Shown here in pieces: positions 58,846 through 59,041 of a stretch of DNA of 64,000 nucleotides. The DNA is from Escherichia coli. GTDB taxonomy: Bacteria > Pseudomonadota > Gammaproteobacteria > Enterobacterales > Enterobacteriaceae. The notes beneath the pieces were generated by a model. The model was not told the DNA's origin, searched no databases, and saw nothing but the letters and a program-made list of their open reading frames with translations. Both the position numbers and the translations under genes were made by a program. The stretch lies in NCBI RefSeq assembly GCF_003334305.1, contig NZ_QOWS01000002.1; one strand, 5' to 3'. Each line of letters begins with the position of its first letter. Position 1 is the first letter of the stretch.

Positions 58846-58925
58846 GCTCGCTTTAAAACATATCATGAAACTGGGTATGTTTTGTCTGCCCGCTCTGGGA
58901 TCGCCGGGGCGGGCATTTTTTTTGC
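58846..58925 (+). ncRNA. flgL 3' UTR with terminator; possible 3'UTR-derived sRNA (FlgO-like)
   Basis: GCCCGC...GCGGGC hairpin followed by T9 at 58888-58924. The sRNA assignment is from recalled literature, not from sequence. Confidence 0.3.
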
Positions 58926-58980
58926 CTATTTTGCATTGTTGGTTAGCAAGGATGCCATTTGATGAATTTTAATATGTTGA

Positions 58981-59011
58981 TTCAAACATGAAATAAAAAA
59001 GCCCTGGCAGT
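58981..59011 (-). terminator. Rho-independent terminator of rne
   Basis: GCCCTGG-cagtta-CCAGGGC with a T-run on the minus strand (plus AAATAAAAAA). Confidence 0.65.
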
Positions 59012-59041
59012 TACCAGGGCTTGATTACTTTGAGCTAATTA

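Follow-up and report, generated by a model that had tools for sequence, protein, structure and literature searches.

The 196-bp gap between the convergent genes flgL and rne in this stretch of Escherichia coli DNA (the window, 64,000 nt in all) very probably holds two intrinsic terminators that are independent of each other and unidirectional; the terminator on the plus strand also forms the 3′ module of a known small RNA, FlgO. The FlgO locus has already been described and annotated, and both terminators are textbook elements. What appears to be new here, as judged by sequence comparison, is the occurrence of FlgO-like sequences in about 25 genera, the covariation of their stems, and the fixed sequence of one hairpin loop.

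In terms of layout, the ORF list and the RefSeq gene names place flgL and rne in convergent orientation on either side of positions 58846–59041, so the convergent genes and the 196-bp gap claimed in a preliminary description of the window are borne out. The names flgL and rne are those of the RefSeq annotation of an E. coli chromosome that is 100% identical to this region. A 701-bp query spanning the gap has 100% identity to several complete E. coli genomes and finds some match in every genome of the collection (5426/5426). With Rfam 15 at permissive thresholds, positions 57500–63000 gave no family over the gap, and FlgO is without an Rfam model; matches in the gap to SNORD19B, asX2, anti-hemB, and BSnc120 were rejected as chance-level hits (E about 1 to 6, far under the gathering scores). 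The RNase E 5′ UTR autoregulatory element (rne5, RF00040) is matched over its full length at 62252–62588 on the minus strand (260 bits, E 1e-81), which is upstream of rne and outside the gap. Features of the locus, together with the predicted pairing sites discussed below, are collected in the table.

Table. Features of the flgL–rne locus (window positions) and predicted FlgO pairing sites (those with a plus or minus sign in the position column are numbered on the gene named).
Feature	Position	Strand	Basis and remarks
Sigma-28 (class 3) promoter-like site upstream of flgK	56177–56203	+	TCAAGTCC-N11-GCCGATAA
flgK CDS	56237–57880	+	ORF; RefSeq annotation of identical region; first gene of the flgKL unit
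flgL CDS	57892–58845	+	ORF; RefSeq annotation; parent mRNA of FlgO
FlgO sRNA, 79 nt here	58845–58923	+	Aligns to MG1655 b4826; runs from the final A of this gene's stop codon (flgL) into the T8 run
Single-stranded 5′ tail	58845–58853	+	Fold; variable in sequence and length among genera except for a U-rich stretch just before hairpin 1
Hairpin 1	58854–58884	+	11-bp A/U-rich stem (58854–58864 with 58874–58884); 9-nt loop AUGAAACUG at 58865–58873
Near-invariant GAAACUGG	58867–58874	+	Hairpin-1 loop with the adjoining base of the 3′ arm; candidate working surface or seed
flgL/FlgO intrinsic terminator hairpin	58887–58915	+	12-bp stem (9 G-C pairs), 5-nt loop
T8 run	58916–58923	+	Sequence; U-tail of FlgO
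A/T-rich spacer between predicted transcript ends	58924–58988		Variable spot of the locus
rne intrinsic terminator	58989–59022	-	10-bp stem within 59022–58999; U-run UUUUUUAUUU at 58998–58989
rne (RNase E) CDS	59042–62227	-	ORF; RefSeq annotation; convergent with flgL
flgA candidate site AACCCAGUUUCGC	48256–48268	-	flgA +459 to +471; 11 contiguous pairs with FlgO nt 22–32, -17.3 kcal/mol
gatC, predicted FlgO duplex	+1246 to +1265		AAAAUAUUCCCGGUUUCAUU, 11+6 bp, -19.6 kcal/mol
msrB, predicted FlgO duplex	+192 to +208		GGCCCAGUUUCU, W-P-S-F codons, -18.3 kcal/mol
ptsH, predicted FlgO duplex	+54 to +67		GCCCAGUUUG, -15.7 kcal/mol
ptsG leader, predicted FlgO duplex	-23 to -8		Weaker pairing over the Shine-Dalgarno sequence, -13.4 kcal/mol

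Both the flgL/FlgO element and the rne element consist of a G+C-rich hairpin followed directly by a U-run. Folded alone, the flgL/FlgO terminator hairpin has an energy of -24.3 kcal/mol and the rne terminator hairpin, which begins 19 nt past the rne stop codon, one of -17.2 kcal/mol; the fold of the rne 3′ end has a z-score of -5.6 (0 of 200 shuffles were as stable). A consensus scan found 9 terminator-like sites in positions 58000–60000, compared with 2.7 ± 1.8 in shuffled sequences. The preliminary description had put the plus-strand terminator at 58888–58924, which agrees with the present assignment within 1 nt, and had called its stable 3′ hairpin compatible with a small RNA; this hairpin is indeed the terminator of FlgO. 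The minus-strand terminator that it gave as 58981–59011 exists as well, and that interval covers the tail and the distal arm, but it lies about 10 nt off and misses the proximal arm (59012–59022). When the sequence is read in the opposite direction, no usable T-run follows either terminator, so each works one way only. If transcripts end at the predicted positions 58923 and ~58989, they would not overlap, and a 65-bp spacer would separate them.

The minus-strand hairpin simply terminates the rne message. Its sequence is identical in K-12, and the nine further rne orthologues that were checked each end in a G+C-rich, terminator-like hairpin with a U-run, at most ~30 nt from the stop codon, the sequence of which differs or is unrelated outside Escherichia.

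The plus-strand element belongs to an RNA with a published history. The RefSeq annotation of MG1655 contains the ncRNA flgO (b4826; 1140986–1141063, 78 nt). Its 5′ end coincides with the final base of the flgL stop codon, as does the start of the published K-12 primer used for cloning, SM041 (PMC10578931). FlgO derives from the flgL 3′ UTR, and deletion of fliA lowers its level (Melamed et al., eLife 2023, PMC10578931). The sigma-28-dependent RNA from the flgL 3′ UTR that the preliminary description had mentioned thus exists exactly here, by the b4826 annotation and by PMC10578931, and the Northern blot and Hfq co-immunoprecipitation that it proposed as checks have been published for K-12 with positive results (PMC10578931). 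In K-12, FlgO is observed as a ~75-nt doublet that is depleted by a 5′-phosphate-dependent exonuclease, and is hence a processed cleavage product (PMC10578931). In an independent Hfq CLASH study, the flgL 3′ UTR was TEX-sensitive and appeared in Hfq CLASH hybrids (PMC7213987). FlgO is strongly co-immunoprecipitated by Hfq and ranks fourth among sRNAs in Hfq enrichment (PMC10578931). Its RIL-seq partner set is the smallest among the four sigma-28 sRNAs, and its overexpression leaves flagella number and motility unchanged; the authors of that work suggested that FlgO may not be a conventional base-pairing sRNA and may instead titrate Hfq or recruit another protein (PMC10578931). Our literature search found no later paper giving FlgO a function.

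The sequence around FlgO is consistent with the notion that it is cut from a longer message. No sigma-70-like site was found in positions 58000–60000 and no sigma-28-like site in the gap or the end of flgL; an independent FlgO promoter is thus unsupported, which fits processing. The promoter-like site upstream of flgK has three mismatches to the sigma-28 pattern, all in the -35 part, and an exact -10 part (GCCGATAA); the pattern CTCAAGTYY-N11-(G/T)CCGATA(A/C) recurs at the corresponding position in 10 of 10 genera examined. Transcription would start at this conserved site, the presumed source of a flgKL-FlgO transcript, and would stop at the T8 run, and an endonuclease, most likely RNase E, would then cut at the flgL stop codon. 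RNase E is the usual enzyme for sRNAs processed from 3′ UTRs and prefers U at +2. The GC found in the window just after the cut site is a poorer RNase E match than UU and counts against cleavage by this enzyme. Hfq would be held by the terminator hairpin and the U-tail, with U8 as the expected proximal-face site, as can be rationalized from the established terminator-plus-U-tail module and from the co-immunoprecipitation of FlgO with Hfq (PMC10578931). The best match to the sigma-28 consensus in the window lies elsewhere, at 48035–48061 on the minus strand (TAAAGATT-N11-GCCGATAA, one mismatch), just downstream of flgA; from its position upstream of flgM, it is presumably the flgMN class-3 promoter.

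The FlgO allele of the window differs from that of K-12 by four substitutions and one extra U over the 78–79 nt aligned. Nucleotides 2–3 are GC in the window and UU in K-12; the other aligned Escherichia also have GC, which suggests that the UU of K-12 is the derived state. At two positions of the terminator stem, the window has C and K-12 has U, so that the C-G and G-C pairs there become U-G and G-U with pairing kept, and the U-run is U8 in the window and U7 in K-12. The loop and stem of hairpin 1 and the linker are identical in the two alleles. Of 5426 complete E. coli genomes, 5425 carry FlgO once, and 1289 have it with at least 99% identity to the window allele.

The 79-nt FlgO sequence has a minimum free energy of -33.6 kcal/mol (z-score -5.4; 0 of 200 shuffles as stable). 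It folds from a 9-nt 5′ tail into the A/U-rich hairpin 1, followed by a 2-nt linker, the G+C-rich terminator hairpin, and the U8 tail. Homologous loci were collected in a scan with FlgL, using one genome per species, which yielded 69 loci; the FlgL peptide patterns did not retrieve Salmonella, and the alignment is therefore without Salmonella. After the flgL stop codon, 62 distinct sequences representing about 25 genera of enterobacteria contain a FlgO homologue of 71–83 nt, and every homologue (62/62) has a run of at least six T. The Pseudocitrobacter and Hafnia loci contain no recognisable FlgO-like sequence downstream of flgL, and in two loci (L031 and L048) the hairpin-1 loop is replaced.

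In the alignment of these 62 sequences, 87.8% of cells are paired in the two-hairpin structure, and 16 of its 23 pairs show double changes. The covariation score of 0.290 compares with 0.165 in shuffles (0 of 500 reach the observed value) and with at most 0.108 when the pairing partners are slid. Nine of the 11 pairs of hairpin 1 are changed on both sides, with 90.6% of cells paired, as are seven of the 11 pairs of the terminator hairpin across genera; RNAalifold, which was not given the structure, returned the same 9+9-bp core. Within the covarying flanks of hairpin 1, GAAACUGG is close to invariant, with per-position counts among the 62 sequences of G60, A60, A61, A58, C57, U51, G57, and G58 (82–98% conservation, at least 92% at seven of the eight positions).

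The loop of the terminator (alignment columns 68–73, window 58899–58905) reads CACCCC in 41–59 of the 62 sequences per position and GGAUCG in Escherichia, and is a second, weaker conserved single-stranded motif. One FlgO loop has been reported to differ in S. Typhimurium (PMC10578931), probably this one. Several loci are unusual in other respects. In E. albertii (L081), the loop at about 10955–11035 reads GAAGCCUGG and the terminator is altered; at 1841–6230 of the same locus, the calls for flgD, flgE, and flgF are broken into several short pieces, and flgH is truncated to 138 residues, compared with ~232 elsewhere. The flg operon of E. albertii thus appears to be decayed, and the combination of loop drift with a fragmented operon agrees with a loop that is selected only as long as flagella are produced. 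In Intestinirhabdus alba (10955–11015 of its locus), a G+C-rich, hairpin-forming insert of ~60 nt lies between the flgL stop codon and the FlgO homologue, so FlgO would not start at the stop codon there. A 280-bp contig of 0.31× coverage filed as Arthrobacter agilis carries the end of flgL, matches the K-12 FlgO allele at all 78 nt compared, and is probably contamination; a contig filed as Chryseobacterium sp. 18061 also bears an enterobacterial flgL-FlgO.

The published partners of FlgO allowed the conserved loop to be compared with candidate targets. Many of the RIL-seq partners are sugar-uptake or PTS genes (gatC, gatA, the ptsG leader, ptsH, lamB, the dhaK leader, and garP; PMC10578931, supplementary file 1), and this list may point to a connection between carbohydrate transport and the expression of late flagellar genes. 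When 67 windows of 12 nt from FlgO were slid over the RIL-seq partners and over 79 background sequences, only windows covering nt 24–37 reached a p value of about 0.001. The segment used for pairing was thus picked after a 67-window scan, and conservation singled out the same segment independently. FlgO nt 21–34 were then compared with all nine sense-strand partners found in at least two RIL-seq conditions and with 43 annotated K-12 genes; the length-corrected duplex energy gave z = -1.74 and a Mann-Whitney p value of 0.007, with 1 of 200 shuffled queries as extreme, for backgrounds that are small in both tests (43–79 genes) and with intramolecular structure ignored. In this second comparison, gatC, msrB, and ptsH outscore all 43 background genes. 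The 9-mer CCCRGUUUC is present in gatC and msrB, the two most reproducible RIL-seq partners, where 0.12 occurrences are expected; the shorter 8-mer complement of the invariant core shows no enrichment in the partners (p = 0.15). Taken as sequence matches, these results are suggestive of an enrichment of complementarity between the loop region and gatC, msrB, and ptsH.

A FlgO partner in one RIL-seq condition (PMC10578931), flgA, contains the candidate site listed in the table. This site is absent in nine other genera that keep the loop, T-Q-F-R being replaced by S-M-L-R, so it is either peculiar to E. coli or a chance match. The ptsH site in other genera with identical HPr proteins carries a synonymous GCC to GCU change that keeps a G-U pair, which proves nothing about pairing. 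A full-length RNAduplex calculation for FlgO and gatC gave a 70-nt duplex of -47.9 kcal/mol that was discarded as meaningless, since intramolecular structure is ignored, and perfect 9-mers between the 5′ tail or stem of FlgO and gatC or gatA occur at chance level (about 0.4 expected by our own estimate). Elsewhere in the window there is no exact complement of the loop, and 15 complements with one mismatch are found where 4.6 are expected; our guess is that this excess stems from the commonness of ATG-AAA-CTG-like strings in coding sequence. No experiment combining a seed mutation with a compensatory change on a FlgO target was found in the literature search.

How FlgO works can be read in several ways. 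Hairpin 1 is unneeded for termination yet is kept by compensatory change around a fixed loop, which points to the loop as the functional surface. Our best guess for the role of the loop, a tentative one that we hold to be possible rather than probable, is that FlgO is a conventional seed-using regulator in which GAAACUGG would start pairing inside the coding regions of gatC, msrB, and ptsH and, in E. coli, also of flgA. Loop-initiated base pairing would couple the expression of late flagellar genes to mRNAs for sugar uptake and others; were this true, it would signal completion of the flagellar hook-filament junction to mRNAs of the sugar PTS and others. The loop could instead be a docking site for a protein or RNA partner. 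It is likewise conceivable, if somewhat doubtful, that FlgO occupies Hfq, as a sponge or titrator or as a scaffold bringing another protein, and does so without regulating mRNAs by pairing, in which case its abundance would alter the free Hfq available to other sRNAs while the late flagellar genes are on. This was the idea of the authors who ranked FlgO fourth in Hfq enrichment and yet recorded the smallest and least reproducible partner set and no overexpression phenotype (PMC10578931), and it agrees with the canonical Hfq module, a terminator hairpin with U8, that FlgO carries. However, occupancy of Hfq needs just a U-tail, a terminator, and U/A-rich single strands; it leaves a near-invariant GAAACUGG on a variable stem unexplained, and the best partners bear complements of exactly the loop segment. 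Pairing from the loop and occupancy of Hfq can both hold if the loop docks a third factor.

A more modest role, in which FlgO is a stable decay remnant that has no function in trans and the hairpins act in cis for flgKL termination and stability, strikes us as improbable. The terminator hairpin would here shield the 3′ end of the flgL mRNA from exonucleases, and Hfq binding would be incidental; many 3′ UTR fragments do accumulate on Hfq (lists in PMC7213987), no phenotype has been reported (PMC10578931), and the element is always physically joined to flgL. Termination and 3′ protection need the second hairpin only, however, whereas hairpin 1 is kept by nine double-change pairs and its loop is conserved in about 25 genera; the drift of the loop in E. 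albertii, alongside a fragmented flg operon, also fits selection while flagella are made. A role of hairpin 1 in cis is nonetheless conceivable. The resemblance of ATG-AAA-CTG to a typical gene start, with a frame open for 35 codons, raised the question of whether a small ORF (ATG at 58865, stop at 58970–58972) starts at the conserved AUGAAACUG. This we regard as having a negligible chance of being right and have rejected: the ORF crosses the terminator, so the FlgO RNA would lack a stop codon; the loop varies at its first two positions (A/U/C/G and U/G), and the ATG is missing in most genera; stem and linker indels break the frame; and the ATG has no Shine-Dalgarno sequence before it. To return to pairing from the loop, FlgO is among the most abundant Hfq ligands in E. 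coli, and its fixed loop and the complements in its partners name nucleotides for mutation on both sides.

Beyond the end of FlgO, the locus is variable. About 63 bp of the spacer is replaced by a ~0.9-kb pair encoding a tacA antitoxin and a GNAT toxin in 687 of 5426 complete E. coli genomes (for example E2348/69; L003, 4326–5205), and the pair at this spot is always single-copy and chromosomal. In C. youngae, Kluyvera, Leclercia, and Enterobacteriaceae bacterium 89, FlgO is separated from rne by genes for an MFS transporter and a LysR regulator, and rne follows FlgO directly in Escherichia, Dryocola, and some Citrobacter. Whatever genes lie downstream, FlgO stays next to flgL. The flgL-rne spacer is thus a site where additional genes have settled repeatedly, none of which part FlgO from flgL.

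The two elements of the gap can be compared with known systems at several levels. Like canonical Rho-independent terminators, both have a G+C-rich stem of 10–12 bp, a short loop, and at least six U; in contrast to the canonical elements, the flgL terminator doubles as the 3′ module of FlgO, whereas no second role was found for the rne terminator. The closest relative of the window FlgO is that of K-12 (b4826), which occupies the same locus and has the same architecture of two hairpins and a U-tail, and which differs at nt 2–3, at two stem positions, and in the length of the U-run.

Among the sigma-28 sRNAs described with FlgO, FliX (from the fliC 3′ UTR), MotR (from the motA 5′ UTR), and UhpU (from the uhpT 3′ UTR) share with it the sigma factor, an origin in a UTR, and Hfq binding (PMC10578931). 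FliX is processed as FlgO is, and MotR and FliX pair inside coding sequences, as is proposed here for FlgO (PMC10578931). Unlike FlgO, FliX, MotR, and UhpU alter flagella number and motility and have mapped seeds (PMC10578931); they lie outside the window and have no sequence in common with FlgO. CpxQ (from cpxP), SdhX (from sdhCDAB-sucABCD; PMC6393394), and MalH (from malG; PMC8081044) resemble FlgO in being released by cleavage from a parent mRNA at its 3′ end and bound by Hfq, in relying on the promoter and terminator of the parent, and in being conserved, short, structured RNAs that end in the mRNA terminator. Unlike FlgO, CpxQ, SdhX, and MalH have validated targets and single-stranded seeds; FlgO carries its sole conserved single-stranded sequence in a hairpin loop and has no overexpression phenotype (PMC10578931).
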